From: a virus | Taxonomy: Duplodnaviria > Heunggongvirae > Uroviricota > Caudoviricetes | Virus record (IMG/VR): IMGVR_UViG_2671181100_000006 | Location: 1 to 22,939 of that record | Length of the DNA: 22,939 nt | Direction: 5' to 3' (one strand) | Shown: piece by piece, positions 3,726 to 18,104 of the stretch | Layout of the letters: each line of letters begins with the position of its first letter | Numbering within the stretch: position 1 is the first letter of the stretch | Notes under the pieces: generated by a model | Databases searched by the model: none | The model's input: the letters and a program-made list of their open reading frames with translations, nothing else | Told to the model about the DNA's origin: nothing | Program-made: the position numbers and the translations under genes

Positions 3726-4386
3726 TGCTGTTATCCTCACAGCAGTGGTGCCGCCCCTCTGGGTCAGTGGATACATGTCCACAGATATCGCACTCTATTT
3801 CATCCAGCACTACCGACGCTAGCTGCTCTTTGATGTGCAATCGCGGCTCACCATCTTTCGGCTCAGGCCACACCCGCGCCTTATTCACCGCTAGTTTTTC
3901 AATCATCGCCTTAGTGATTTGCTCGTCAGTGATACCGGCGCGGCGTTGGGCATCCCATAGCAGAAACTGCAAATCGGCCCACTCGCTGAGGTCGCCTGGT
4001 GCTGCTGCGGCTTCCAGCGCTTCTTTGCTTAAGTGTTTCAGTGGACCAATCGGGCCGACATTACCAAAGGTGGCCTGAGACCACGCGGTGTGCTCGCGGC
4101 GAACGTGCTCGCGGTCCGGCGCTGGCTGCGGTATGGCGTAGAGTTGCGCACCAAAGTCAGGAAGTTCGCCAGTGACCTGGACGAACTTTTGTTTACCTCC
4201 GTCAATTCCTAGCGGGTAGTAAGCTCTAATCTCTGCCACCGGCTCACTGTCCATTTCGGCCAGCGCGATGCGAGCCAGCTCCTCGGCCTCTTCAGCTGGC
4301 AGCATGACGTTGCTTCCGGCTCCGTAGGTTTCACGCCATGACTTAATTTTTTCCAGACGTTCTCTGGTTATGATTGATTGGGTCAT
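3718..4386 (-). CDS. MazG-like nucleotide pyrophosphohydrolase-type protein (DUF550 / dATP-dGTP pyrophosphohydrolase-like)
   Basis: 222 aa with AAGGAG RBS. C-terminal region (...SKEALEAAAAPGDLSEWADLQFLLWDAQRRAGITDEQITKAMIEKLAVNKARVWPEP...) resembles MazG-type all-alpha NTP pyrophosphohydrolase segments seen in prophage proteins. Assignment from memory, not a search. Confidence 0.5.
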   Translation of the reverse strand: MTQSIITRERLEKIKSWRETYGAGSNVMLPAEEAEELARIALAEMDSEPVAEIRAYYPLGIDGGKQKFVQVTGELPDFGAQLYAIPQPAPDREHVRREHTAWSQATFGNVGPIGPLKHLSKEALEAAAAPGDLSEWADLQFLLWDAQRRAGITDEQITKAMIEKLAVNKARVWPEPKDGEPRLHIKEQLASVVLDEIECDICGHVSTDPEGRHHCCEDNSND

Positions 4387-5456
4387 TAGCTGGACTCCTT
4401 ATCATTAGTTACAGATAAGTTTTTATTCACGATGGCATCCATCAATCGTGATGCAGCAGCCTTCTGGGCAGAGACATTGGCAATGACCGTTGGCCTGGAT
4501 TTCTCGCAGCTGGCGCAAATACCATCCCATGATGAAATGAGGAAGAAATCTTCACGATCGGCAATGCCGGTATTCATTACCAGGTCCTCAATCATCAGCG
4601 TGACCCCGCGAACTCCCCGGCCTTCACTTAACCTCTGTACTGCGTAGCCGAAGGCGTTAATCATCACAGCATGGAACTGGATGTACTCGCGTTTGTACTC
4701 AGCCTGATTCGTACCTCGGCGAATATCATCTAAACCAGTCAGCATCAGCCAAGCATTCCACAACCCCTCAAGATCATCCTGTGAGCAGGAATCTGAAAAT
4801 TTTGCCGTGGCATCACTAAGGGCTTTGAAGCTGACCCACTTATCACTTTTCGCAGGAACGACGTTATGCTCAAAATCGGTGACTTCAGAAAAGACGTCGT
4901 GTGAACTGATAAAACTGACCATCTCCTGCGCGTTCTTATCGCGCCCGTTATAGGCCATGTTGATAGCCGCAGATGGCTTCGAAACATTGTTGTTAATGTC
5001 GGAAAAGAACTGCTGCCGTGTTTTCAACGAGAGCTTATGTGTGAGCATTAGTGGTACGTGGATTGGTTCGCCAACTGTGCGGCAAAATTCGGCGATCCCC
5101 GCTGCACGGTGCTGGCCGTCGAAAAGCTTAATTTCTGCATCCATAGGGAAGCGCACAACACCAACGTTGGTATTGCCGAATTCCTGAAACTCAATCTCAG
5201 AGTTACAGTTACCGACCAGCGGTGGGATAATGAAGGGCTCTTTATTTTCGTGAGCATTAACCAGATATTCATAGAATTTCTTAGCACGCGCTGGGTTAAT
5301 TTCACGCTGAGAACGTTCTAAAGTATCTCCGTAATTATCACTGGCGAGGACGCGTGCCAAGGTTCGTGCTGGCACTGTCATCATAAGGACAATCGCTCCG
5401 CCCTGAACGCCGCGAGACGCAGGGAACTCAAAGAAATAATCTCCAACTATGCTCAT
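4386..5456 (-). CDS. DGQHR-domain protein (DndB-like, ParB/Srx superfamily)
   Basis: Contains the literal DGQHR motif (KLFDGQHRAAGI). Start placed at the ATG (MSIVGDYFF...) rather than the upstream GTG on the ORF track. Stop overlaps the start of the downstream gene by 1 nt. Confidence 0.7.
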   Translation of the reverse strand: MSIVGDYFFEFPASRGVQGGAIVLMMTVPARTLARVLASDNYGDTLERSQREINPARAKKFYEYLVNAHENKEPFIIPPLVGNCNSEIEFQEFGNTNVGVVRFPMDAEIKLFDGQHRAAGIAEFCRTVGEPIHVPLMLTHKLSLKTRQQFFSDINNNVSKPSAAINMAYNGRDKNAQEMVSFISSHDVFSEVTDFEHNVVPAKSDKWVSFKALSDATAKFSDSCSQDDLEGLWNAWLMLTGLDDIRRGTNQAEYKREYIQFHAVMINAFGYAVQRLSEGRGVRGVTLMIEDLVMNTGIADREDFFLISSWDGICASCEKSRPTVIANVSAQKAAASRLMDAIVNKNLSVTNDKESS

Positions 5457-5587
5457 GCTACCCACCACTCAATAAACATGCAGATACCAACGGTTACTAC
5501 GGCAATAAGCACCCAGCAGATCACATCGAACAAGGCGGCGAACCGACGTAGGGTGTATTTGCTATAATTCTCATGATCAATATTCAT
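5453..5587 (-). CDS. Small hydrophobic peptide (44 aa, predicted single transmembrane helix), not on the ORF track
   Basis: My own translation of the minus strand: MNIDHENYSKYTLRRFAALFDVICWVLIAVVTVGICMFIEWWVA. Its ATG overlaps the ParB-like stop (ATGA) and its TGA overlaps the DGQHR start (ATGA), suggesting translational coupling. Confidence 0.4.
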   Translation of the reverse strand: MNIDHENYSKYTLRRFAALFDVICWVLIAVVTVGICMFIEWWVA

Positions 5588-6369
5588 ACCGCCTCCCCAA
5601 TCACCCAACGAAGTGCGCTTGCATACTCACCCTCGGCTGATTCAAGGGCTTTGATGATTTCTTTGCGGGTTTTCAGGCGCGGCTTTGCCTCGCCGAGGAT
5701 CTGACGCTGACGCCGGGCTTTTTCATGGCCGGTTGTGCCAGCAGTTGCCGCTTCGATTTCAGAGACCTTCTCCCGCTGCTCTTCTGGTTTAAGCGATGCC
5801 AGCTGACGCGCCTGGGTAACGGTGACCGTTCCGGACTCCACTGCATCGCGAACAGCCTGGGTGGCATCCAGCAGAGACAGAGTTGCGCGTACGGTCTGGA
5901 CACTCACGCCAAACATCAGCGCTAAATCGTCCTCGTCGTGCCCGCGTTCCAGCGCATCAGCCATTTTCTTTGCTCGGCCCAGTGGCGTATCTGCCTGGCG
6001 GATTTCGTTAGCACTTACCATCGCCTGCGCCATGCGAACGGCGGAGCCACGTTTAGCGACTGCTGGAACCAGTAACGGTTCTTTGCCCTCTTTCGACAGA
6101 CGCTTGTTGGCTTCCAGTGTATGGCGCACACGCTGGCGACCATCGACTACACAAGACAGCCCTGTCTCCGGGTCTTTCCAGACGATAATCGGCTCAAGAA
6201 CGCCCTGGTCCATGATGTTCAGCACCATTGCCTCGCTGATAGGCAGGTGGATACGCTCATCGTAAAGCGGGTGCGTTTTGTCGGTAACCAGGTGCAGGTT
6301 TTCAGGTTCGAACGTCAAAACGTTCGTTTTGCCACTCGCGCCATATACCAGCTTTGAGTCTTTAGCCAT
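5584..6369 (-). CDS. ParB-like N-terminal domain protein (ParB/Srx nuclease-like fold plus helix-turn-helix)
   Basis: Motif ...GVLEPIIVWKDPETGLSCVVDGRQRVRHTLEA... matches the ParB box region (GERRxRAA-like). A downstream HTH-like segment (DLALMFGVSVQTVRATLSLL) follows. Confidence 0.7.
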   Translation of the reverse strand: MAKDSKLVYGASGKTNVLTFEPENLHLVTDKTHPLYDERIHLPISEAMVLNIMDQGVLEPIIVWKDPETGLSCVVDGRQRVRHTLEANKRLSKEGKEPLLVPAVAKRGSAVRMAQAMVSANEIRQADTPLGRAKKMADALERGHDEDDLALMFGVSVQTVRATLSLLDATQAVRDAVESGTVTVTQARQLASLKPEEQREKVSEIEAATAGTTGHEKARRQRQILGEAKPRLKTRKEIIKALESAEGEYASALRWVIGEAV

Positions 6370-6755: not shown

Positions 6756-7673
6756 TCAGGCTGCTGGTTTTTGTTCTTCGGGCTCTTTGTAGGCGAGCAG
6801 ATCACAAAGCTGGTTAATTACTTTACAGAACTGGAACATGTCCGTACCTGCCTGGTGACGCCAGCGGTAGGCTTTGTCGTCATCATCAGAATAATCATTA
6901 TCCTTGGTATCGATCCGCCGGAAATGGAACTTATCTGTAAGCAGAAAAGAGACGCCGCAGCCTCTTAATTCCATGTTATCGACGATAAAACCTGTGTTCA
7001 GGCTCTCCAGAATTTCACTGGTAACGGAAGTGTGTTCCGCAGAGTAGCGAATAACTTCTTTCTGTTCTGCCAGGCGGGATAGCTGGACATAATCACCGAC
7101 CTCAAACCCGGCAAAGGCTGATTCTTCGCCGTCCAGATGGTTTTTAAGGCGCGTTGTCAGGCCGTTTTTGATATCACTGATGTTGATCGTGACTGTTTTT
7201 ACTGAGCCAATCACTTTAACCAGCATCGCCCCGACTAAATTGGCAATATTTTTATTGGCGGAATTAATGATCAGCAGATTTTCTTCAGTGTTATACAGGA
7301 CCAGGATCAGAGACGACTTGATGAATGCCTGTTTGCAGAGCTGAACCTTAGCATCCTGGATAATGTTGTTACGGTCAGCGCGCTTCAATTTCTGACCACA
7401 CGCATTTTCGATGCGCTGGATACGCTCATTGGCTTCTTTCATTACGACGTGCTGGGGGATTATTTTCTCATCGCGGCGAACCACGATTGCATAACCGCCA
7501 GTAATTGGCGTAACCAGCTCGCCAGTAATCGGATTAGGGACGAAGGAAGCCCGCGCGAACTCCGTTTCTGTAAGTTCAGAGTAGGGCAATTCCTGCAGGT
7601 GCCCTTCAACCGCTTCAATGCTGGGCAAAGTAGCCCGATAGACAATGGCGTTACGTAACTTTGATATTTTCAT
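6756..7673 (-). CDS. rdgC: Recombination-associated protein RdgC homologue
   Basis: 305 aa, similar in length to E. coli RdgC (303 aa). N-terminus (MKISKLRNAIVYRATLP...) resembles the RdgC N-terminus (…FKNLMVYRL…). GAGGA RBS. Confidence 0.65.
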   Translation of the reverse strand: MKISKLRNAIVYRATLPSIEAVEGHLQELPYSELTETEFARASFVPNPITGELVTPITGGYAIVVRRDEKIIPQHVVMKEANERIQRIENACGQKLKRADRNNIIQDAKVQLCKQAFIKSSLILVLYNTEENLLIINSANKNIANLVGAMLVKVIGSVKTVTINISDIKNGLTTRLKNHLDGEESAFAGFEVGDYVQLSRLAEQKEVIRYSAEHTSVTSEILESLNTGFIVDNMELRGCGVSFLLTDKFHFRRIDTKDNDYSDDDDKAYRWRHQAGTDMFQFCKVINQLCDLLAYKEPEEQKPAA

Positions 7674-8333
7674 TTCTGTTTCCTCTGCAAAGGATTAGTT
7701 AGTTATCTCCACACAACGGAAAGAGCACTGAAGCACTGGAAACTCACTTGACTAACACAGTGCTTTTTCCTGTTGTGTGCCGGGCTTCCACCGGCTCCCA
7801 TCTGTTTTTAAAGCCACTCAGATATCGTCTGGGCTGTGCCGTCTACTTCCGGCTGTCACTGCCGTCGAGAGTGCTGGCAGCTCACTGACCTGATAACTCC
7901 CAGGATCAACTGGAGTGGTTGTTATCGCTACCAAAGCGCCACTGTCCAGGACATTTAAAAGGACCGTCTCCAAGTGGTAACTCTTCCAGTCCCGCTAAAC
8001 ACTCGTGTAAATGCTTAACGTGAATGGCTGATATCCTCGTCTCTTCCGAGGCGTCACACCTTTTCGCCGCGCTGGTGGGGCGCACGTCGTGCCTGAACAC
8101 TTAGCTTGCACATTCCGGTTGTTCTGAGAGGCATGGATAAAGGGACTCTCAGGCCGCTAACGCTGCATGTGCCATACAACGGTCATGAATATTGCCGTTC
8201 ACAACTGGAAGCGCACTCCTTCAGTTACAAACCGATCCCCACCGGAAAGAAGGGGAATGCGCTTCCATGTTGTGTTCTGTTCATCCTTGTCCGTAAGTTT
8301 CGTCATGTGCCGACGAGTAGAAGATAATCATAA

Positions 8334-8370
8334 ATTGCGAGTAACGCAATAGATGTGTGCGTAAAACGCA
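8334..8370. promoter_or_regulatory. Candidate left operator (OL) with two inverted-repeat sites, ATTGCGagtaaCGCAAT and TGCGtaaaaCGCA; probable pL region
   Basis: Palindromic GCG-N5-CGC sites read directly from the sequence, of the same type as three sites in the cI-cro intergenic region. Located just beyond the repressor-gene terminator, where a leftward early promoter is expected. Confidence 0.4.
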
Positions 8371-8380
8371 AATTTAGGGC

Positions 8381-8406
8381 GAAAAAAAAGGCCTCGAATG
8401 AGGCCT
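8381..8406 (-). terminator. Rho-independent terminator downstream of the repressor gene (minus strand)
   Basis: Hairpin AGGCCTC-gaat-GAGGCCT followed on the minus strand by an 8-nt U-tract (A8 on the plus strand at 8382-8389). Confidence 0.6.
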
Positions 8407-8424
8407 AGTTTATGATGATGAATG

Positions 8425-9217: not shown

Positions 9218-9460
9218 ATGCAATCACCATTAAGAAAATTGCGAAAATCGCATGGCATGACCTTATTGCACGTTGCAACCGGGGTACAGGTAGATCCTGC
9301 AACGTTGAGCCGCATTGAAAGATGCGAGCAAGTCCCATCTGTCGAACTGGCGGAGAGATTAGCCAAGTTCTTTAGAGGAGAAATAAGCGAATTACACATT
9401 TTGTACCCAAGTCGCTATCAAACAGATGACGTACCAAGTGCAAATAATCGTACTGCTTAA
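9218..9460 (+). CDS. cro: Cro-like HTH transcriptional regulator
   Basis: 80-aa protein with XRE-type HTH (MTLLHVATGVQVDPATLSRIERCE). AGGAGG RBS. Divergent from the repressor. Confidence 0.75.
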   Translation: MQSPLRKLRKSHGMTLLHVATGVQVDPATLSRIERCEQVPSVELAERLAKFFRGEISELHILYPSRYQTDDVPSANNRTA

Positions 9461-9494: not shown

Positions 9495-9956
9495 ATGGTA
9501 GAGCCAAACCTCAAAGAAGCCGTCAAAGCGATGTGCAAAGCATATCCAGGTGGGCGCGAAGCAATGGCTGGCGCACTGGGAATGACGGTGACGCAGTTTA
9601 ATAACAACCTTTACGAGAAAAACGGCTGTCGTTTCTTCGAAGTCAGCGAGCTGGAAGCGATGGAAGACATTTCCAACACGTCGTTACTGGCTGATTACTT
9701 CGCTCGCCGCCGTGGTGCTCTGCTGGTGGATGTTCCGCACCTGGAAGAGCTGGATCGCGTGGACTTGTTCAGCCGGGCAATGCGTACCTCTGCCGCCAGA
9801 GGACAGGTTGATCAGATTATCGAACAGGCACTTGAGGATGGGGTAATCGAAAGACATGAAGCTGAAGAAATCATGGTGCATCACCGCCGCCACTTGGCTG
9901 CGCGTGAAGAAGAGATTGCGGCAATTATCACGTTATTTGCACGCAAAAAGAAGTGA
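9495..9956 (+). CDS. CII-like / YdaT-like early regulatory protein (family assignment tentative)
   Basis: 153-aa ORF immediately downstream of cro, in the canonical cII position. Resemblance to prophage CII/YdaT-type proteins is from memory only. Confidence 0.45.
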   Translation: MVEPNLKEAVKAMCKAYPGGREAMAGALGMTVTQFNNNLYEKNGCRFFEVSELEAMEDISNTSLLADYFARRRGALLVDVPHLEELDRVDLFSRAMRTSAARGQVDQIIEQALEDGVIERHEAEEIMVHHRRHLAAREEEIAAIITLFARKKK

Positions 9957-10193: not shown

Positions 10194-10373
10194 ATGCGAG
10201 AGCTCAACCGATGGTTCAGAGATCACTACGGCGTCCCGGTCAGGGTCATACGCTGGGAGCCCCAGACACAGCGCGTTATATACCTGCGTAAAGGGTACGA
10301 GCATGAATGCTTTAGCCCCCTTGAGCAGTTCAGACGTAAATTCAGAGAAATAAAGGACGATCATGAGCACTAA
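10194..10373 (+). CDS. Small hypothetical protein (59 aa), not on the ORF track
   Basis: My own translation: MRELNRWFRDHYGVPVRVIRWEPQTQRVIYLRKGYEHECFSPLEQFRRKFREIKDDHEH. GGAGAA RBS; G/C-rich third codon positions; stop overlaps the start of the O-like gene. It overlaps the track ORF 10018-10353 in another frame, and only one of the two is likely real. Confidence 0.35.
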   Translation: MRELNRWFRDHYGVPVRVIRWEPQTQRVIYLRKGYEHECFSPLEQFRRKFREIKDDHEH

Positions 10374-11331
10374 ATTAACAGGATACGTCTGGGACGCTTG
10401 CGCATCTTCGGGGATGAAACTATCCAGCGTGGCAATCATGGCGCGCCTGGCTGACTTCAGCAACGATGAGGGTGTTTGCTGGCCTTCTATCGCGACCATA
10501 TCCCGTCAGATTGGCGCTGGTGAAAGTACTGTCAGAACGGCGATAACTGCGCTTGAGAAAGAGGGATGGCTCACCCGTACGCAACGCCGCAATGGCAACC
10601 GTAATGCATCGAACGTCTACCAGCTCAACGTTTCCAAACTACAGAAAGCGGCATTTTCTCACCTGTCAGTTTCTGACACGTCAAAATCTGACACATCAAA
10701 ATCTGAACCGTCAAAATCTGATGCGTCAAAAATTGACCCCTCAAAATTTGAGGCGTCGGAATCCACCAAAAAAACCAGTTTTGACCCGTCAGAATCTGGG
10801 GGGGATCCGTCAGTAAAATCAACTACTGATCCATCAGATATAAATCCTTCTTGTCCGGACGCTTCGCAACCGGACGAACAGGGCTCTGCTGATGAATTTC
10901 TGTCACGACATCCTGACGCGGTGGTGTACAGCGCTGCAAAGCGGCAGTGGGGCAGCCAGGACGATTTAACCTGCGCCCAGTTCATTTGGGGAAAAATTAT
11001 CAGCATGTACGAACTGGCTGCTGAAAGTGATGGTGAGGTAGTTCGCCCTAAAGAACCAAACTGGACCGCATGGGCGAATGAGGTTCGCCTGATGGTGATG
11101 CAGGACGGGAGAACCCATAAGCAAATTTGCTCACTGTTCAAGCGCGCCAACAAAGATTCGTTCTGGTGTAAAAACGTACTCAGCCCGTCGAAGCTTCGGG
11201 AAAAATGGGATGAGCTGTCGTTAAAACTATCTGCTCCACTCAATAGCTCCCGCCAGGAGTCGTCCATTTCGCGAGCCAGCTTCGATGGGGTTGATTACTC
11301 ATTGCCAGAAAACTCGGGGTTCCGCACATGA
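10363..11331 (+). CDS. Replication initiator (lambda O-like) with N-terminal winged-helix DNA-binding domain and internal origin iterons
   Basis: N-terminal HTH-like region (SVAIMARLADFSNDEGVCWPSIATISRQIGAGESTVRTAITALEKEGWL). Low-complexity linker encoded by tandem 15-bp DNA repeats. Position after cII matches O. Confidence 0.65.
   Translation: MSTKLTGYVWDACASSGMKLSSVAIMARLADFSNDEGVCWPSIATISRQIGAGESTVRTAITALEKEGWLTRTQRRNGNRNASNVYQLNVSKLQKAAFSHLSVSDTSKSDTSKSEPSKSDASKIDPSKFEASESTKKTSFDPSESGGDPSVKSTTDPSDINPSCPDASQPDEQGSADEFLSRHPDAVVYSAAKRQWGSQDDLTCAQFIWGKIISMYELAAESDGEVVRPKEPNWTAWANEVRLMVMQDGRTHKQICSLFKRANKDSFWCKNVLSPSKLREKWDELSLKLSAPLNSSRQESSISRASFDGVDYSLPENSGFRT
10666..10755 (+). repeat. Putative replication origin: six tandem ~15-bp iterons (TCAAAATCTGAnnnn) followed by an A/T-rich tract, embedded in the initiator ORF
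   Basis: Units read directly: tcagtttctgacacg / tcaaaatctgacaca / tcaaaatctgaaccg / tcaaaatctgatgcg / tcaaaaattgacccc / tcaaaatttgaggcg, then caccaaaaaaaccagtttt. Same layout as ori-lambda inside gene O. Confidence 0.6.
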
Positions 11332-12137
11332 GTAAGCCATTTCTCAAATGGGCTGGTGGAAAGTATACCCAGCTGGCTGACCTGTTCGTGCATATCCCGG
11401 CAGGGAAACGCCTGATAGAGCCATTCGTTGGTGGTGGGTCGGTATTCCTGAACAGCGAAAAGCACGCAGATTACCTGCTGGCGGACGTTAACCCAGACCT
11501 GATTAATCTGTATCAGATGTTAGCGGTGGTGCCGGATGAAGTGGAATTAAAGGCCCGCTGGATGTTTGAGCACATGCGGTCACCAGATGGCTATGAGCTG
11601 ATCCGTTCCGAGTTCAACGCTCAGACGCTGGATGCTACTGAACGCGCAGCTGCATTCCTGTATCTCAACCGGCATTGTTTCAATGGCCTGATGCGCTACA
11701 ACCAGGCGAATAAGTTCAATGTGGGCTGGGGAGGCTACAAGGCCCCGTATTACCCGATGGATGAGATGAAAGCCTTTGCGGCTATGGCGCATAACTGCGT
11801 ATTCATGACCGCTGATTACCGTCGGACAATCAGCCTGGCCGGGAAAGGGGATGTGGTTTACTGCGATCCGCCTTACGAACCGATGCCGGGAACAGCCGGA
11901 TTCACTGCCTACGCCGCTGGTGGGTTTAACTGGGAGAACCAGGTAGACCTGGCGAAGCAATGTGTATCAGCCTTTCACCGTGGGGCTCGGGTAGTGATTT
12001 CTAACTCATCCGCCCCGAAGGTTCTCGACCTGTACCGGGAGCATGGTTTTAACCTGCAATTCATCAAAGCGCGCCGTTCGATCTCCTGCAAAAGCAGTAC
12101 GCGGGAAGTCGCAAAAGACGTTGTAGCGATCCTTTAA
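11328..12137 (+). CDS. dam: DNA adenine N6-methyltransferase (Dam-like, D12 class), orphan phage methylase
   Basis: Motifs KWAGGK, FVGGGSV (AdoMet binding) and DPPY (catalytic). No adjacent restriction endonuclease gene. Confidence 0.85.
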   Translation: MSKPFLKWAGGKYTQLADLFVHIPAGKRLIEPFVGGGSVFLNSEKHADYLLADVNPDLINLYQMLAVVPDEVELKARWMFEHMRSPDGYELIRSEFNAQTLDATERAAAFLYLNRHCFNGLMRYNQANKFNVGWGGYKAPYYPMDEMKAFAAMAHNCVFMTADYRRTISLAGKGDVVYCDPPYEPMPGTAGFTAYAAGGFNWENQVDLAKQCVSAFHRGARVVISNSSAPKVLDLYREHGFNLQFIKARRSISCKSSTREVAKDVVAIL

Positions 12138-12146
12138 GGGGGCTAA

Positions 12147-12524
12147 ATGAAACTGACTTTACCATTTCCACCGAGCGTAAATAGTTACTGGCGCGCTCCG
12201 AGCAAGGGACCGCTGAAAGGCAGGCATCTGGTAAGCGAGACAGGGCGCAAGTTCCAGCAGGCAGCGAGAGCGGCGATTATTGAGCAACTGCGGGCCGCTC
12301 CCCGGCCATCCTCTGATCTGGCCGAGGTTCACATTGTGTTGTATCCGCCGGATGAGCGCCGTCGGGATATCGATAACTACAACAAAGCGCTGTTCGATGC
12401 CCTGACTCTAACAGGCGTCTGGGAAGACGACAGTCAGGTTAAGCGCATGCTGGTGGAGTGGGGGAACATCGTGAAGAAAGGGAAAGTAGAAATCACTATC
12501 CGTCGTTTTCGTGCAGCTGCCTGA
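12147..12524 (+). CDS. rusA: Holliday junction resolvase RusA
   Basis: 125-aa protein close in sequence and length to E. coli RusA (LPFPPSVNSYWR..., ...RRRDIDNYNKALFDALT...). Confidence 0.9.
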   Translation: MKLTLPFPPSVNSYWRAPSKGPLKGRHLVSETGRKFQQAARAAIIEQLRAAPRPSSDLAEVHIVLYPPDERRRDIDNYNKALFDALTLTGVWEDDSQVKRMLVEWGNIVKKGKVEITIRRFRAAA

Positions 12525-12536
12525 CGTGGAGATGAT

Positions 12537-13517
12537 ATGAGAGCACTACTAACCCCTGAGATTGCCCCACGCATGGGCGTTGTTCTGCTTCGCCCAGGCG
12601 CTGATCTCATGCCGATGTTCAGGAGAGGGCGGGTACTGATTGAGCCTGCACCGGAAAAATACAGCGACTACGCAACCGGCGCTATCCCTCCCGCCACGCA
12701 GCCACTGGCAGAAGACCCGGTTTTGAAGCCAGTCTTCGAAAACAAAGACGTCATTCTGCGCGCGGGTGGTATCAGCTCGCTGGAGGCCGAGCTGGAGCGT
12801 CGTTTTGAATGCCAGTATCCGCATGGCTCGTGGCACAGCGAAAATTTTACGCTGTTCCGGCATGAGCCTGGCAGCATCCGCCTTTGCTGGGCCTGCGATA
12901 ACCTGGTGCGTGATCAGTACACAGAGACGCTGGCAGGCATTGCGCGTGGGAACCTGGTATCCTGGTTGATAACGGTCATCCGCTCACAGCTGGGGTTCAA
13001 CGAAGACCATCAACTGACGATCCCAGAGTTGTGCTGGTGGCTGGTAATAAACAATCTGGCGCACGTCATCCCTGAATCGCTGGCCCGGAAAGCCCTGCGA
13101 TTGCCGGAAATAAAGCATCAACCGGTGATGAAGGAGAGCGATATTGTGCCGGAGCCAGCGGCGAGCGAAGTGGTGCAGAAAAAGATTCTCGGTCTTCGCG
13201 TAGATCCTGAAACGCCGGAATCATTTATGCTGCGACCAAAGCGCCGCCGCTGGGTAAACGAGAGCTGGACGCGCTGGGTTAAGTCTCAGTCGTGTGTCTG
13301 CTGTAACAAACAAGCAGATGATCCCCATCACCTGATAGGCCACGGACAAGGTGGAATGGGAACAAAAGCGCATGACCTGTTTGTGTTGCCGCTTTGCAGA
13401 GCGCATCACGACGAGTTGCACGCTGACACCGTGGCATTTGAGGAGAAGCACGGCTCACAGCTGGAGCTGCTGTTTCGATTTCTGGATCGTTCGCTGGCAA
13501 TTAGCGTGCTGGCATAG
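12537..13517 (+). CDS. Phage protein with C-terminal DUF968-like / HNH-like Cys-His motif
   Basis: C-terminus CVCCNKQADDPHHLIGHGQGGMGTKAHDLFVLPLCRAHHDELH resembles HNH/DUF968 zinc-binding regions common in lambdoid nin regions. Assignment from memory. Confidence 0.5.
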   Translation: MRALLTPEIAPRMGVVLLRPGADLMPMFRRGRVLIEPAPEKYSDYATGAIPPATQPLAEDPVLKPVFENKDVILRAGGISSLEAELERRFECQYPHGSWHSENFTLFRHEPGSIRLCWACDNLVRDQYTETLAGIARGNLVSWLITVIRSQLGFNEDHQLTIPELCWWLVINNLAHVIPESLARKALRLPEIKHQPVMKESDIVPEPAASEVVQKKILGLRVDPETPESFMLRPKRRRWVNESWTRWVKSQSCVCCNKQADDPHHLIGHGQGGMGTKAHDLFVLPLCRAHHDELHADTVAFEEKHGSQLELLFRFLDRSLAISVLA

Positions 13518-13530
13518 TGGAGAACGCATA

Positions 13531-14109
13531 ATGATTAACCCGTCCGAGGTTGGAAAAGCTGGTGAAATGGTCAGGCTGAAAACGCTGGAGGCCATCTGGA
13601 TTCAGGGGAAGCTGCGCATGTGGGGCCGCTGGTCTTACATCGGCGGCGGTAGTGGCGGCAATATGTTTAACCAGTTACTGGCTTCCGGGAAAGTCACTAA
13701 AACAGCCATCAACGAAGCATTACGCCGGATGAAGAAGTCCGGCATCTCGAAGCCAGAGCTTGAGGCGTTTTTTCGTGAAATACTCGCGGGGAAAAACAAA
13801 AGCGGCCTGGCCTTCTGTACAGACGATGAAGGACTGCTGATTGATAAGGTACTGGGGGCAGTCCTCATTACGGGTGGTCATAAAGAGCTATACCACCTGC
13901 TGGTGGAGCATTACCGGTTACGGAAGAGCAAACGCCGCATAGCGGAAGAGCTCTATGAAAAGCATCCAGACTGGTGCTTTATGACATGCAGACGAAGAGT
14001 TGATACATGGCTAAGTTTGGCAGAATCGATGCTGTACGCACCAATGTGTGACGCATTCGGCACAAATGGCGACAGATTTTACTTGCAAAGTGAGCCAGAA
14101 ACTGCTTGA
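13531..14109 (+). CDS. Q: Late-gene antiterminator Q (phage 82-type family)
   Basis: Start placed at the ATG (MINPSEV...) with GGAG RBS, in frame with the longer track ORF. Motif KLRMWGRW resembles the ERWGAW signature of phage 82-type Q proteins. Followed by a terminator. Confidence 0.65.
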   Translation: MINPSEVGKAGEMVRLKTLEAIWIQGKLRMWGRWSYIGGGSGGNMFNQLLASGKVTKTAINEALRRMKKSGISKPELEAFFREILAGKNKSGLAFCTDDEGLLIDKVLGAVLITGGHKELYHLLVEHYRLRKSKRRIAEELYEKHPDWCFMTCRRRVDTWLSLAESMLYAPMCDAFGTNGDRFYLQSEPETA

Positions 14110-14556: not shown

Positions 14557-14665
14557 CATTTATGGCCCAGGCTAAAAATTGCATATTAACCGTGAAACGC
14601 ATAAGCCTGCGGCCTGAATTCTTTCCCCTCGTTCTGAGAGGATTCACAGCAATAGAGGGGGACCG

Positions 14666-15052
14666 ATGTCCGAACCAATAACCGGCACAGGCTTAGCTGG
14701 TGGCGCTTTAACTGGGGCGAGTGTTTACGGGCTATTAACCGGTACAGACTACGGTGTTGTGTTCGGGGCATTTGCTGGTTCCGTCTTTTATATAGCGACA
14801 GCGGCCGATTTGAGCGCCCCACGACGGATGGCATATTTCGTTGTGTCCTATATTGCTGGAGTTCTGTGCTCCGGGCTGGTCGGTTCTAAGTTATCCGACC
14901 TTACCGGGTACAACGATAAGCCTCTGGATGCAATTGGTGCCGTAATCATTTCGGCATTGGCCGTAAAAATACTCACCTTCCTGAACAATCAGGATATTGG
15001 CTCGCTGGTGGCGCTAATAACGCGCCGGGGAGGTTCCGGTGGTACTAAATGA
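14666..15052 (+). CDS. Holin (multi-TMD small membrane protein)
   Basis: 128-aa Gly/Ala-rich hydrophobic protein with several predicted TM helices and a charged C-terminus, first gene of the lysis cassette. RBS GAGGGGGA. Confidence 0.6.
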   Translation: MSEPITGTGLAGGALTGASVYGLLTGTDYGVVFGAFAGSVFYIATAADLSAPRRMAYFVVSYIAGVLCSGLVGSKLSDLTGYNDKPLDAIGAVIISALAVKILTFLNNQDIGSLVALITRRGGSGGTK

Positions 15053-15320
15053 TCCTACTGCAACCATCAATGCGCTGTTATGTGCTGGTGTCGTTGTTAC
15101 GTTGATGTTCTATCGCCGCAGAGACTCACGTCATCGTAAGTGGGTGTCGCGGCTGGCATGGCTGATAACAGTGATTTACAGCTCTGTGCCGTTGGCGTAT
15201 CTGTGCGGCATCTATCCCTATTCATCATGGCCCACCATTGCGGCCAATATCATGATCCTTGTTGTGCTGCTGAGCGTAAGAGGCAATGTAGCGCGGCTGG
15301 TTGATGCACTGAGGCACTAA
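15039..15320 (+). CDS. Small membrane protein of the lysis cassette (second holin / antiholin-like)
   Basis: 93 aa with three hydrophobic segments. GTG start preceded by GGGAGG. Overlaps the holin 3' end and its stop overlaps the endolysin start. Confidence 0.5.
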   Translation: MVLNDPTATINALLCAGVVVTLMFYRRRDSRHRKWVSRLAWLITVIYSSVPLAYLCGIYPYSSWPTIAANIMILVVLLSVRGNVARLVDALRH

Positions 15321-15949
15321 TGAATCAAACACAATTCCAGAAGGCGGCTGGTATCAGCGCCGGGTTAGCTGCGCGCTGGTATCCGCATATTACAGCTGCG
15401 ATGAAAGAGTTCGGCATCACTGCTCCACTCGATCAGGCAATGTTCATTGCTCAATGCGGCCATGAAAGCCTCGGTTTTAACAGGGTGGTGGAGAATTTCA
15501 ACTACAGCATCGCCGGGCTTGCTGATTTTGTTCGTTACGGCAGGTTAACGCAGGATCAGGCCAATTCCCTCGGGCGTAGCCAGTCGGAAACAGTGTTACC
15601 TCTGGAGCGCCAGCGGGCTATCGCCAACATTGTCTATAGCAAGCGGTTGGGTAACAACAGGGCAACTGATGGATGGGCTTATCGTGGGCGCGGACTTATT
15701 CAAATAACCGGATTGTCAAATTACCGGGACTGCGGTAACGGGCTGAAGGTTGATCTAGTGGCACAGCCAGAATTACTGGAGCAGTCCTCGTACGCGGCCC
15801 GTAGTGCAGCGTGGTTCTATGTCTCAAAAGGTTGCTTGAAATATCCGGGTGAGCTTGTCCGGGTTACTCAGATTATCAACGGCGGACAAAACGGGATTAA
15901 TAACCGGCGCGCTCGCTTCCTGAAAGCAAAATCGGTACTGGTGGTGTGA
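15320..15949 (+). CDS. Endolysin, glycoside hydrolase family 19 (chitinase-like lysozyme)
   Basis: GH19 signature ...WAYRGRGLIQITGLSNYRDCG... and catalytic-region CGHESLGF. Sits between the holin genes and the spanins. Confidence 0.75.
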   Translation: MNQTQFQKAAGISAGLAARWYPHITAAMKEFGITAPLDQAMFIAQCGHESLGFNRVVENFNYSIAGLADFVRYGRLTQDQANSLGRSQSETVLPLERQRAIANIVYSKRLGNNRATDGWAYRGRGLIQITGLSNYRDCGNGLKVDLVAQPELLEQSSYAARSAAWFYVSKGCLKYPGELVRVTQIINGGQNGINNRRARFLKAKSVLVV

Positions 15950-16227
15950 TCATGGGAATCGAAGCTATCGCGGGGCTGGTGGTTGTCATCCTGGGTGCTA
16001 TCGCTGGCGCGTTCGGCATCGGCCATGCTCGCGGGACCAGTAAGGCAGAAGCCAAAGCCGATCAGCAGCGTACCGAAGAGAACGCCGCCGCCACCGTCGC
16101 CGCGGCAGAACGTAAGGCGGAAGTTGTGAAAGAGGCAAGCGATGTACAGCAAACCGTTAGTCATATGCCTGATGACGATGTTGATCGCGAGCTGCGCGAA
16201 AAGTTTACCCGCCCCGGTAGTCGTTGA
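15946..16227 (+). CDS. i-spanin (Rz-like inner-membrane spanin subunit)
   Basis: N-terminal TM segment (IAGLVVVILGAIAGAFGI) followed by a charged periplasmic domain. Start is GTG at 15946 or ATG at 15952. Confidence 0.6.
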   Translation: MIMGIEAIAGLVVVILGAIAGAFGIGHARGTSKAEAKADQQRTEENAAATVAAAERKAEVVKEASDVQQTVSHMPDDDVDRELREKFTRPGSR

Positions 16228-16357
16228 TACGGCCTGCAGCTGGGTGAGGGTCATCTACCTGACCGACCACGATATTGACGTGCTGGATAAGCAGACCAAG
16301 CGCGACATTCTGGCGCATAACAAAGCAGTGGAAGTCAACTGCCAGAAAGGGAAGTGA
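16142..16357 (+). CDS. o-spanin (Rz1-like outer-membrane lipoprotein), overlapping the i-spanin in another frame
   Basis: Signal peptide with lipobox (MTMLIASC). Begins inside the i-spanin gene in a different frame and extends beyond it. Confidence 0.6.
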   Translation: MYSKPLVICLMTMLIASCAKSLPAPVVVDTACSWVRVIYLTDHDIDVLDKQTKRDILAHNKAVEVNCQKGK

Positions 16358-16418
16358 TATTGCTCAAAATTAAATGAGATTTATCTTAATTGCTTTAGTG
16401 CCAGGAAGTAGATTGAAG

Positions 16419-16664
16419 ATGCTGCAATTGGCAGTATCACTCTGGGACATAACAATGGGACAGTATTACTACGTCAATAAAAATGTTCAGGCAAACGGAG
16501 ATCATGAGGTGCATGTCACCGGGTGTACCTTTATGCCTGCATCAGAAAACCGCGTGTACCTTGGAATATTTGAAACCTGCCGTCCTGCAGTAGTAGAAGC
16601 GAAGAAATATTATTCTCAATCAAATGGTTGTTATTACTGCTGTAGAGCTTGTCATACTTCATAG
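16419..16664 (+). CDS. Hypothetical small protein with Cys-rich C-terminus (…NGCYYCCRACHTS)
   Basis: Track ORF 16374-16664. Start uncertain (ATG at 16374, 16419 or 16455); AGGAAG lies upstream of 16419. Followed by a terminator. Confidence 0.4.
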   Translation: MLQLAVSLWDITMGQYYYVNKNVQANGDHEVHVTGCTFMPASENRVYLGIFETCRPAVVEAKKYYSQSNGCYYCCRACHTS

Positions 16665-16682
16665 TTAACCAAAAACAATCGC

Positions 16683-16708
16683 AAGGTCGCCAATGGCGGC
16701 CTTTTTTA
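16683..16708 (+). terminator. Rho-independent terminator
   Basis: AAGGTCGCC-aat-GGCGGCCTT (one G-U wobble) followed by TTTTTT. Confidence 0.5.
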
Positions 16709-16731
16709 TTGCCAGAAGCAGGAGAAGAAGC

Positions 16732-16926
16732 ATGTTAACAGTAAAAGTAATGTCACCAGATGGTGGCGAAGAAATCCATTGCGGCCTGAGCGTTGGTTTC
16801 AACCCCAATCAGCAGAGTATCGCAGTGTCGGGAATGGACCAGAACGTTTTCCTGAAGCAGGGAGAAGTGGCGTACGTGATGAACGCAAACGGAAAGACCA
16901 TTTCCCGTTACGAGCACTTGACCTGA
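16732..16926 (+). CDS. Hypothetical small protein (64 aa)
   Basis: Start at the internal ATG (MLTVKVMSPDGG...) preceded by AGGAG; the longer track ORF would run through the terminator. Confidence 0.5.
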   Translation: MLTVKVMSPDGGEEIHCGLSVGFNPNQQSIAVSGMDQNVFLKQGEVAYVMNANGKTISRYEHLT

Positions 16927-17264
16927 CAATAAGCAGCACTGGCGCCCTTCATTGAAGGGCATCAATAATGATAAACCGAAGCATCTGCCTTAAGTGTTAT
17001 AAAAAACCCCGTGGAGGAAATCCCAAAGCTACGGGGTGCTGTACAGCCAGCCAATGACTGATTGTAGCCACGAAGTTGGTTTATTTTCTACTGGTTGAGA
17101 ATAAAACTGAGAGCCAGGAAGGCTTGAGAGTGGCTCATTCATGAGCTCACGGGTAGAACGGCAGACTTTGTCATGGCAGAGCAAAGTTATAAGTTAGTTT
17201 AGGTAACATTTCGGATATAACAAGCGTAGCGGGGTATTCCTAATAATGGAGCACCGCAGCTAAA

Positions 17265-17303
17265 GCATTACAGGAGCCATTCACCGAGTGGCTTCGATAA
17301 TGC
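17265..17303. repeat. Copy 1 of a ~40-bp nested stem-loop element (GCATTACAG-gAGCCAttcaccgagTGGCTtc-GATAATGC)
   Basis: Outer inverted repeat GCATTA/TAATGC; inner stem AGCCA/TGGCT; loop TTCACCGAG. Lies 25 nt upstream of the ATG at 17329. Confidence 0.6.
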
Positions 17304-17328
17304 TCCCCACATCGCACAGAGGTAAGAC

Positions 17329-17574
17329 ATGGCAGAGATCACCGTATCCGAACAAATCCGCCTGGATATCATCAAAAAAGTTAACTACGACACCGCAGCG
17401 GCCAAGCTGGCCATTGACTGGGTAGGGGACAGCTATCTGAAGTCTGAGCTATTCGCAGACTCTTTCGATCGTGTTTTCACGGAAAGCGAGATTGTCTCGA
17501 AGACCCGTAAGGCCATCCAGGAAGCGACCGAAGCGCTGGCGCTGTTTGATACCAGCGCAGAGCAGGCGAGCTAA
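17329..17574 (+). CDS. Hypothetical protein (81 aa)
   Basis: RBS GAGGT. Flanked on both sides by copies of the stem-loop element. Confidence 0.6.
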   Translation: MAEITVSEQIRLDIIKKVNYDTAAAKLAIDWVGDSYLKSELFADSFDRVFTESEIVSKTRKAIQEATEALALFDTSAEQAS

Positions 17575-17575
17575 G

Positions 17576-17614
17576 GCATTACAGCAGGCATTCACTGAGT
17601 GCCTGTGATAATGC
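17576..17614. repeat. Copy 2 of the stem-loop element (GCATTACAGc-AGGCAttcactgagTGCCTg-TGATAATGC)
   Basis: Same outer inverted repeat. Inner stem is AGGCA/TGCCT, a compensatory G-C swap relative to copy 1 that preserves pairing. Begins right after the stop codon of the 17329-17574 gene. Confidence 0.6.
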
Positions 17615-17679
17615 CGTGCTCAATTGCGGTACTGTTGTTTCCCCTGTTAATCTGTCCCAAACAAACCGATGGGGATAGG

Positions 17680-18060
17680 GACGTGAAAAAGTTACTTTTT
17701 GCAGCATTAATTGGTGTTTCAGCTTTAACAATTACCGCATGTGCGCCAACAGTCCAGAAAGTAGATTACAACCAGAGATCAATGCTTTTATCTCTTGGAA
17801 TGAATAAAAACGACGTCATGCAGATCATGGGGTCGCCACGCAGGACTGATGTGAACCAGGAACGCGAACGCTGGATATACTGGAATAAGGCTCTCTATGG
17901 TTACACAATCATTGATAACGAACAATTGGCTAACGATCGACTGGTTATAACGTTCGTTAATGGTAAGGTCACCAAGTGGGGTCAGCAAACGCTGACTGAT
18001 GACATAATGGAGTCATCACAAAAGAGTGCACAGGCTTATGCTGAGGCATTCAAGAAATAG
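17680..18060 (+). CDS. Phage lipoprotein, BamE/SmpA-OmlA-like (moron)
   Basis: Start at GTG (MKKLLFAALIGVSALTITAC...) giving a signal peptide plus lipobox ITAC; the longer track ORF start is unlikely. BamE-like assignment (...LSLGMNKNDVMQIMGSPRR...ERWIYW...) is from memory. Confidence 0.55.
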   Translation, partial: DVKKLLFAALIGVSALTITACAPTVQKVDYNQRSMLLSLGMNKNDVMQIMGSPRRTDVNQERERWIYWNKALYGYTIIDNEQLANDRLVITFVNGKVTKWGQQTLTDDIMESSQKSAQAYAEAFKK

Positions 18061-18079
18061 ACATTTCAGTCAAATGATA

Positions 18080-18104
18080 ACCTCGCTTTGGCGGGGTTTT
18101 TTTA
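18080..18104 (+). terminator. Rho-independent terminator
   Basis: CCTCGC-tttg-GCGGGG (one G-U wobble) followed by T8. Confidence 0.6.

Follow-up and report, generated by a model that had tools for sequence, protein, structure and literature searches.

The stretch of phage DNA analysed here, a window of 22,939 nucleotides, encodes an intact, stand-alone Dam methyltransferase that is probably active, expressed with the early-right genes and used to complete GATC methylation of the phage genome when the host Dam is limiting. The gene, a Dam-family orphan N6-adenine DNA methyltransferase gene, was identified at 11328..12137 on the plus strand by ORF, profile, structure and PADLOC matches. The analysis described below established the family and the fold of the enzyme, the integrity of its catalytic and DNA-contact residues, the purifying selection on its gene, its status as an orphan and the operon in which it lies.

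The ORF starts with ATG, ends with TAA and spans exactly these positions, coding for a protein of 269 aa. Residues 8-252 of this protein were aligned to the whole Pfam profile of D12-class N6-adenine methyltransferases, PF02086 (positions 1-253 of 253; E=1.3e-51, 176.2 bits against a cutoff of 22), and the NCBIfam model of the Dam subfamily, TIGR00571, gave 247.7 bits with a cutoff of 114.85, both matches being far beyond chance. The protein matched the EcoDam structure PDB 2g1p (E=1.8e-61), and the N-terminus, MSKPFLKWAGGKY, was aligned to EcoDam residues 3-15. The AdoMet-binding motif I (EPFVGGGSV) contains the FxGxG residues F33-V-G35-G-G37, and the catalytic motif IV (D180-P-P-Y183) lies C-terminal to it, with the target-recognition region in between. 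Both motifs were fixed in 74/74 close alleles and present in at least 118 of 120 homologues. The DNA-recognition hairpin covers about residues 118-137, and the lysine K7 is found at the N-terminus.

An AlphaFold model, for which the P1 Dam sequence was left out of the underlying alignment, had a mean pLDDT of 80.6 and a pTM of 0.80, and showed a methyltransferase fold of the Rossmann-like type into which a DNA-recognition domain is inserted, as in EcoDam. When this model was searched with Foldseek, the top matches were all EcoDam (E about 1e-23, TM 0.82-0.90). The protein is a full-length D12-class (alpha-group) enzyme of the Dam subfamily with the EcoDam fold, and the complete D12-class methylase described in the initial annotation was confirmed by the full-length PF02086 match, the intact motifs I and IV and the alignment of the N-terminus to EcoDam. 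It is nonetheless distinct from the host chromosomal orthologue, as it missed the cutoff of the host Dam equivalog NF008152 (258.5 bits, cutoff 441), shares 43.5% identity with EcoDam and is encoded in a prophage setting. The MT-A70-type (METTL3-like, beta-class) prophage 'Dam-like' enzyme M.EcoGV / M.EcoPA8orf6770P was also considered and discarded as a model, the window protein being D12/alpha-class by sequence and fold; that precedent is an rRNA methylase of the MT-A70 family (PMC10810198).

The genes of this region are arranged on the plus strand in the order cro, cII, DUF4222, O-like, Dam, RusA, DUF968/HNH and DUF1133/Q-like. Directly 5' of Dam lies an O-like replication initiator gene (10363..11331, plus strand; HTH_36 and DnaD_N-like by Pfam), whose homologues in related phages are annotated as 'DNA replication protein O' and within which a 15-bp iteron-like array, a putative origin, was found at 10657-10760 by repeat search. 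The TGA stop of the O-like gene and the ATG start of Dam form an ATGA overlap at 11328..11331 on the plus strand, read directly from the sequence (...CGCACATGAGTAAG...), which suggests translational coupling of Dam to the replication gene. Directly 3' of Dam is the gene of a RusA Holliday-junction resolvase (12147..12524, plus strand; PF05866, E=5.5e-16), and the Shine-Dalgarno-like AAGGGGG of rusA overlaps the Dam stop codon. The same operon includes the gene of a DUF968/YdfU-family protein with an HNH-like domain (12537..13517, plus strand; PF06147 E=2.9e-76, HNHc_6 E=2.7e-6), followed by a DUF1133 / Q-like antiterminator gene (13531..14109, plus strand; PF06576 E=1.1e-93, Phage_antitermQ 40.6 bits with a cutoff of 26) that forms the right-hand boundary of the nin-like region. 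The intergenic gaps downstream of Dam measure 9-13 nt. As Dam is flanked by the O-like and RusA genes and lies 5' of DUF968 and the Q-like antiterminator, the label of nin-like given to its location is correct. A scan for internal promoters gave 5 sites compared to 6.4 expected from shuffles, hence no signal above background, and the two sites within the O-like gene corresponded to the iteron repeats.

The window also bears the hallmarks of a prophage, with an integrase beside tRNA-Arg, cI/cro/cII, the Q-like gene, lysis genes, terminase and portal, and its DNA is 96-97% identical to that of Klebsiella and Escherichia phages; the phage that carries Dam is a common Klebsiella/E. coli lambda-like prophage. 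About 4,100 near-identical Dam sequences were found, mostly in Klebsiella; the protein itself has the accession WP_061363443.1, and a Klebsiella cluster is 98% identical to it. A scan of GTDB genomes returned only distant chromosomal Dams (Neisseriaceae, Moraxellaceae and others) with 31-45% identity, which gave no information on the gene neighbourhood. The full-length copies, which represent 64 alleles, were intact in 74/74 cases, and the ratio of nonsynonymous to synonymous variants was 0.51 versus a neutral 3.19. As judged from these variants, the gene is under purifying selection and its function has been retained.

The residues of EcoDam that contact the bases are listed in PMC4417163. 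Five of the seven GATC-reading residues compared (K9, Y119, N120, L122, R124, P134 and Y138) are identical in the window Dam, where K9, N120, L122, R124 and Y138 correspond to K7, N119, L121, R123 and Y137 and are fixed in the 74 close alleles. The two differences are the conservative Y119F and a real change, P134G, which were detected in 114/120 and 109/120 homologues, respectively, and are both carried by the P1 Dam domain. P134 is a base-pair-3 contact in EcoDam and Gly here, and R137 is also Gly. As the EcoDam contacts are conserved except for Y119F and P134G, and both of these are present in the GATC-dependent P1 Dam, the adenine of GATC is the likely target of the enzyme.

According to the gene order, Dam would be transcribed within the early-right (pR-type) operon alongside the replication initiator, and probably coupled to it in translation; the protein would therefore be made at prophage induction or phage infection, and not in the stable lysogen. 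In the mechanism that we propose, motif I would hold AdoMet, the beta-hairpin (residues about 118-137) and K7 would read the GATC bases, and the target adenine would be flipped out for methyl transfer at the DPPY site. In this way the GATC methylation of the fast-replicating phage genome would be kept complete despite a limiting host Dam, and the progeny DNA would exit the cell fully methylated. Such full marking could provide protection against GATC-cleaving, methylation-sensitive restriction and independence from the Dam level of the next host, with possible secondary effects on the handling of phage DNA by mismatch repair or SeqA. The premise of a limiting host Dam draws on published methylation data: in lambda virion DNA, GATC methylation was 46% when the host was wild-type and 77% when additional Dam was supplied (bioRxiv 10.1101/2025.08.29.673000), and P22 and lambda have undermethylated virion genomes, 'possibly because replication outstrips modification' (PMC8022706). 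The substrate is plentiful, with 84 GATC sites in 22.9 kb.

The initial annotation had put forward protection against host restriction, a reasonable role for which there are precedents (reviewed in PMC12707154). What the phage would gain is uncertain, since both E. coli and Klebsiella are Dam+ and hence unlikely to carry GATC-cleaving, methylation-sensitive enzymes, and according to the literature what phage Dam enzymes do 'is still not well understood' (PMC7556043). A benefit through mismatch repair is made less likely by the observation that more GATC methylation did not lower the mutation frequency of lambda (bioRxiv 10.1101/2025.08.29.673000). No cluster of GATC sites like those of P1 pac or oriC was detected in the window, the maxima over 100-500 bp being matched by 75-99% of random placements, and the cI-cro and post-Q intergenic regions are devoid of GATC. 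The closest pair of sites, 10804/10828, lies beside the putative origin iterons and is statistically ordinary. Given this lack of a pac- or oriC-like cluster, there was no sign of a dedicated regulatory target.

The residue changes described above could also be read as a sign of relaxed or shifted specificity, with Y119F, P134G and the sub-clade change R137G loosening contacts to the third base pair or to flanking positions, so that GATC and near-cognate sites would be methylated by a broader anti-restriction 'Trojan horse' methylase. An altered or relaxed specificity through P134G and R137G is conceivable, and it is supported by the restriction of Gly at position 137 to the closest relatives of the query, most others having Lys, and by reports that prophage-encoded methylases are often promiscuous and host-silent (PMC4659465; PMC12707154; PMC7556043). 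However, the non-specific phage methylases cited come from other families, the P1 Dam domain with the same F119/G134 signature serves GATC-dependent packaging, and K9, L122 and R124, the last being the residue chiefly responsible for discriminating base pair 4, are all invariant, which makes this reading unlikely. Extended to the whole, very abundant F119/G134 clade of Klebsiella/E. coli prophage Dams (here with G137), targeting of GATC plus near-cognate sites is a speculative and rather improbable idea; if true, the DNA of the phage and, for a short time, also the chromosome of the host would on induction acquire a methylation pattern impossible for the host Dam, and this could bear on how clinical Klebsiella lineages and their phages evade restriction. 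A different question is whether Dam acts alone. When the window ORFs were tested with restriction-enzyme models no match was obtained, the neighbours of Dam are the O-like and RusA genes, and the best PADLOC model for Dam was oMTase (orphan methyltransferase; E=4.8e-89), so that the claim that there is no cognate restriction gene holds as far as it could be tested. The DUF968/HNH gene, two genes downstream, was considered as a partner that would make up, with Dam, a so far overlooked restriction-modification or methylation-dependent system, as its product bears an HNH-like nuclease domain and co-occurs with this Dam in 78/78 close relatives, and in phage mEp460 a methylase is also encoded near the DUF968 gene. 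This co-occurrence was drawn, however, from a single phage lineage; the RusA gene separates Dam from DUF968 in the window, the mEp460 methylase belongs to an unrelated family and is three genes away from DUF968, and no PADLOC match was obtained for DUF968. Moreover, DUF968/YdfU adjoins Q in 175 phage records of many lineages (among them SfV, Stx phages, Vibrio phages and K-12 Qin), and the K-12 Qin prophage contains it without a methylase. In view of this wide, Dam-independent distribution beside Q, DUF968/HNH was rejected as the cognate nuclease, and a restriction pair of this kind is very improbable.

Two further roles suggested in the initial annotation fared less well. As a lysogenic-conversion epigenetic regulator, Dam would be expressed in the lysogen and raise the cellular Dam activity, and a changed methylation of normally protected GATC sites would shift host gene expression or prophage stability. 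The dam product of phage Phi24B was detected in lysogen cultures (PMC3342100), and stable 933W lysogeny reportedly requires host Dam, in a work cited by the same source; the signal from lysogen cultures can, however, stem from spontaneously induced cells, and for a prophage Dam homologue of E. coli EC958, transcriptional data led to the prediction that the lysogen has no activity of this enzyme under the conditions examined (PMC4659465). An alteration of host gene regulation in lysogens by the window Dam is doubtful, as the gene lies within the repressor-controlled early-right operon, where it overlaps the replication gene downstream of cro and cII in a tightly packed array with no excess of promoters, and as E. 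coli and Klebsiella hosts already methylate GATC, with more than 92% of the Klebsiella host sites methylated; overall, we regard this role as improbable. The other suggestion was a functional link to the DndB-like (DGQHR) module of the early-left operon. Such a link might, for example, consist of cross-talk with phosphorothioate or other backbone or base modification, and it could draw on the report that Dam and Dnd modification shift each other's site distribution in bacteria (PMC12707154). The co-occurrence of the genes was analysed by tblastn searches with the window proteins in 80 IMG/VR loci that encode the same Dam, 63 of which (Dam 97-100% identical, enough upstream sequence) were eligible for the count, and the DndB-like gene was found in just 8/63 of them. 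The product of the ORF itself is a DGQHR-domain protein of a generic kind, with a score below the cutoff of the DndB equivalog model TIGR03233 (106.9 bits, cutoff 328), no dndACDE genes were found in the window, and about 6 kb separate the Dam gene from the DGQHR gene, which belongs to another operon on the other strand. The link was rejected on the basis of the low co-occurrence and the failed equivalog; the partnership is largely refuted by the co-occurrence data, and its probability is minimal.

Orphan Dam genes have long been known in temperate phages (P1, T-even phages, HP1 and VT2), and the window Dam is an ordinary representative from which no new principle emerges. In practical terms it is of modest relevance. 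The allele occurs in thousands of genomes of Klebsiella pneumoniae and in some of E. coli. Should Dam be active upon induction, it would determine how far GATC sites are methylated in phage DNA that is transduced or released, a point of importance for the host range of phages and for reading the methylomes of clinical isolates. With methylation of the phage's own genome during the lytic phase as the preferred role, the locus would offer a convenient inducible lambdoid model for the idea that host Dam is limiting during lytic replication. In general, a Dam carried by phages of Dam+ hosts seems redundant.

Compared to known enzymes, the window Dam resembles EcoDam (PDB 2G1P and others), likewise an orphan, in its Pfam/NCBIfam family, fold (TM 0.82-0.90), length, motifs I and IV and hairpin length, with 43.5% identity over 262 aligned residues and conservation of K9, N120, L122, R124, N126, N132 and Y138; it differs in Y119F, P134G and R137G and in belonging to a prophage early operon instead of the chromosomal dam operon. 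T4 Dam and DpnM (M1.DpnII), found among the PDB matches, share the D12 fold and GATC specificity, and the intercalating residue of T4 Dam is likewise Phe, but both are much more distant (Foldseek identity 19-30%), and DpnM is part of a restriction-modification cassette. In phage P1, Dam corresponds to the D12 domain of the dmt product and is a phage-borne orphan acting on GATC that has 49% identity to the window Dam and the same clade signature, HCFNGLxRYNxxxxFNVGxGKY, including F119 and G134. In contrast to the window Dam, it makes up the C-terminal portion of a longer protein (673-aa CDS, MH445380), and packaging of P1 requires GmATC methylation, which in Dam- hosts is provided by P1 dam (PMC12707154), whereas the window has no pac-like GATC cluster and the terminase of its phage is of the lambda type. 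Among the phage relatives that have a name, damL of the lambdoid phage phi80 is the closest (70% identity), although this is a frameshifted pseudogene of the leftward recombination operon near xis/int, outside the nin region. M.EcoVT2Dam of the Stx2 phage VT2-Sa and M.EcoMIV of E. coli EC958 are likewise orphan Dam-type methylases of lambdoid prophages; VT2 Dam was reported to target GATC, and for M.EcoMIV the prediction was one of inactivity in the lysogen under the conditions examined (PMC4659465). As a positional analogy, phage mEp460 encodes an unrelated N6-adenine methyltransferase at the corresponding place, between the replication gene and RusA.

The open reading frame at 11328..12137 (+) comprises 269 codons, from an ATG start to a TAA end, and its product (window Dam) covered the whole Pfam profile PF02086 of D12-class N6-adenine DNA methyltransferases (E=1.3e-51, 176 bits, cutoff 22). 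It scored above the cutoff of the Dam subfamily model NCBIfam TIGR00571 (247.7 bits vs 114.85) and below that of the host-Dam equivalog NF008152 (258.5 bits vs 441). Among solved structures, entries of E. coli Dam (EcoDam), 2G1P among them, ranked first (E=1.8e-61), ahead of DpnM and T4 Dam. An AlphaFold model made with 25 family members as input (mean pLDDT 80.6, pTM 0.80) was superposed on EcoDam with a TM of 0.82-0.90, and the sequence has F33-x-G35-x-G37 for AdoMet binding and DPPY at residues 180-183 for catalysis. Therefore, the complete D12 methylase proposed in the initial annotation was borne out: all sequence and fold criteria tested place the protein in the D12/Dam family. It is not the orthologue of host Dam, and it falls in a phage/prophage clade with P1 Dam (49% identical) and the phi80 damL pseudogene (70%).

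The window is the left half of a lambdoid prophage. Its first 14.5 kb have a 99.5%-identical copy in E. coli WP2-S18-ESBL-08, adjoining tRNA-Arg and dsdC, in which the Dam gene is 100% identical; the closest phage records are for the most part Klebsiella phages and prophages (96-97% DNA identity). The E. coli prophage carries an IS66-family (ISEc22) insertion absent in the window (L001 20369-22704 vs window 14561-18095) and is otherwise 97-99.5% identical to it, with a lysis region that differs in part, so the window comes from another strain.

Rightward, cro (9218-9460), cII (9495-9956), DUF4222 (10194-10373) and an O-like replication gene (10363-11331) precede Dam (11328-12137, +), which is followed by RusA (12147-12524), a DUF968/YdfU protein with an HNH-like domain (12537-13517) and a DUF1133 protein that also matches Phage_antitermQ (13531-14109), and then by lysis and terminase genes, an order which fits the 'nin-like region' named in the initial annotation. 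The stop codon of the O-like gene overlaps the Dam start codon (ATGA), the gaps downstream of Dam are just 9-13 nt, and a promoter scan gave no excess of sites (5 vs 6.4 in shuffled sequence). On this gene anatomy, the simplest reading is that Dam lies within a single early-right transcription unit that would be repressed in the lysogen. A role of the enzyme in lysogen gene regulation, as had been proposed, is doubtful because of this operon position and because the prophage Dam homologue of E. coli EC958 was predicted to be inactive under the tested conditions (PMC4659465), although the dam product of Phi24B was detected in lysogen cultures (PMC3342100).

Within the O-like gene, six in-phase 15-bp iteron-like repeats (TCTGACNCGTCAAAA) were observed at 10657-10760, with an inverted copy at 10779-10798; they encode a repetitive peptide linker of SKSDT type and plausibly form a lambda-style origin inside the gene of the initiator. 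The closest GATC pair of the window (10804, 10828) lies directly 3' of this array, its spacing being statistically ordinary.

The proposed absence of a cognate restriction gene was likewise upheld by the flanking genes (a replication protein on one side, the RusA resolvase on the other), by zero matches of restriction-enzyme models to the window ORFs tested, and by PADLOC, whose best model for the protein was 'orphan methyltransferase' (E=4.8e-89). The sole nuclease-like gene nearby, DUF968/HNH, was present alongside the same Dam in all 78 close relatives, which form a single lineage. The DUF968 family, however, adjoins Q in 175 phage records (Stx phages, SfV, SfII, cdtI and Vibrio phages) and also in the K-12 Qin prophage, where there is no methylase, and on this broad distribution it was rejected as the cognate nuclease.

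EcoDam contacts its target through R124 (guanine of base pair 4), L122 and P134 (base pair 3), Y119 (intercalated between the central base pairs), N120 (hydrogen bond to a base), and K9 and Y138 (recognition of base pair 1), as summarised in PMC4417163. Window Dam has R123, L121, G133, F118, N119, K7 and Y137 at these positions: five of the seven residues are unchanged, the substitution Y119F (EcoDam numbering) is conservative, and P134G truly alters a contact residue. T4 Dam also has Phe at the Y119 position. Among 120 relatives, Phe was found at this position in 114 and Gly at the P134 position in 109, whereas R137G was limited to the closest relatives, with Lys in most others. The D12 domain of P1 Dam bears the same hairpin signature, HCFNGLxRYNxxxxFNVGxGKY, and the P1 pac site requires GmATC methylation, which P1's own methylase provides in Dam- hosts (PMC12707154). 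Based on this shared signature and the dependence of P1 on GmATC, GATC is the likely specificity of window Dam.

The 84 GATC sites in the window (0.72 of the number expected under a Markov model and 0.94 of that expected from base composition) make the Dam substrate plentiful, and no pac-like or oriC-like GATC cluster was found across the window. Lambdoid phages that lack a Dam gene are released with undermethylated DNA: in lambda virions, GATC methylation was 46% after growth on a wild-type host, against 77% when additional Dam was supplied (bioRxiv 10.1101/2025.08.29.673000). Dam made together with the replication initiator would be a simple means of closing this gap. The benefits classically proposed for a phage Dam are a shield from methylation-sensitive GATC-cutting systems and independence of the host Dam level (PMC12707154); a mismatch-repair benefit is weakened, as raised methylation did not lower the mutant frequency of lambda (bioRxiv 10.1101/2025.08.29.673000). 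In phage mEp460 (L096 2130-2783 / 7368-8420), an unrelated 'DNA N-6-adenine-methyltransferase' takes up the same slot, with the replication gene on one side and RusA on the other, and another DNA methylase lies shortly downstream of Q. Non-homologous methylases thus recur at equivalent positions of lambdoid phages, and by analogy this slot may be a recurrent home of self-methylation functions.

Purifying selection on Dam was clear. Among 80 IMG/VR loci with 97-100% identical Dam, all 74 full-length ungapped copies scored were intact (64 distinct alleles), with 72 nonsynonymous and 142 synonymous codon variants, a ratio of 0.51 vs 3.19 expected from codon content. All catalytic and DNA-contact residues were fixed, save one variant each at residues 136 and 250.

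The suggested link to a DndB-like module was not supported. The ORF at 4386-5468 (-), a stand-alone gene, passed just the generic DGQHR-domain model (TIGR03187) and failed the DndB equivalog (106.9 bits vs 328), no dndACDE genes were found in the window, and about 6 kb separate the ORF from Dam, which lies in the opposite operon. It was present in only 8 of 63 same-Dam loci with sufficient upstream sequence, whereas the adjoining ParB-like HTH protein gene (5584-6369, -; early-left operon) was present in 71 of 72; the former is a variable accessory and the latter almost constant. Two further products of the early-left operon are a dATP/dGTP pyrophosphohydrolase-domain protein (PF04447; 3718-4386, -), which the E. 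coli reference annotates as a truncated DUF550 pseudogene, and an Rv2179c-like 3'-5' exonuclease (PF16473; 2788-3381, -). The 437-aa ORF directly after the integrase (1226-2539, +) had zero matches in Pfam, NCBIfam and PADLOC, and its position is typical of a cargo or defence gene.

With respect to known enzymes, a prophage 'DNA adenine methylase' recently reported to be an rRNA methylase is no precedent for window Dam, as it is an MT-A70 enzyme (PMC10810198). The phi80 damL (L015 2932-3817), a frameshifted pseudogene, lies in the leftward recombination operon beside xis/int, so the same gene occurs in different operons of different lambdoid phages. Eleven relatives at 64-69% identity (P0046, P0050, P0055, P0057, P0059, P0062, P0089, P0092, P0097, P0114 and P0116; Salmonella, E. 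coli and Phytobacter) have an extra PF00145 (C5-cytosine methyltransferase) domain and are therefore Dcm-type/Dam-type fusions of about 345-470 aa; in P0028, PF06996 is joined with the Dam domain, possibly as a gene-call artefact. Window Dam itself is abundant, with more than 7,700 relatives among 5.8 billion proteins searched, including a 98%-identical cluster with about 4,100 sequences, most of them from Klebsiella pneumoniae, and public records already annotate it as 'Dam family site-specific DNA-(adenine-N6)-methyltransferase'. Long-standing examples of orphan Dam enzymes come from P1, VT2, the T-even phages and HP1 (PMC7556043; PMC6602927), and the sole non-trivial point beyond them is a possible effect of the clade's G134 hairpin on fidelity, which we consider improbable.
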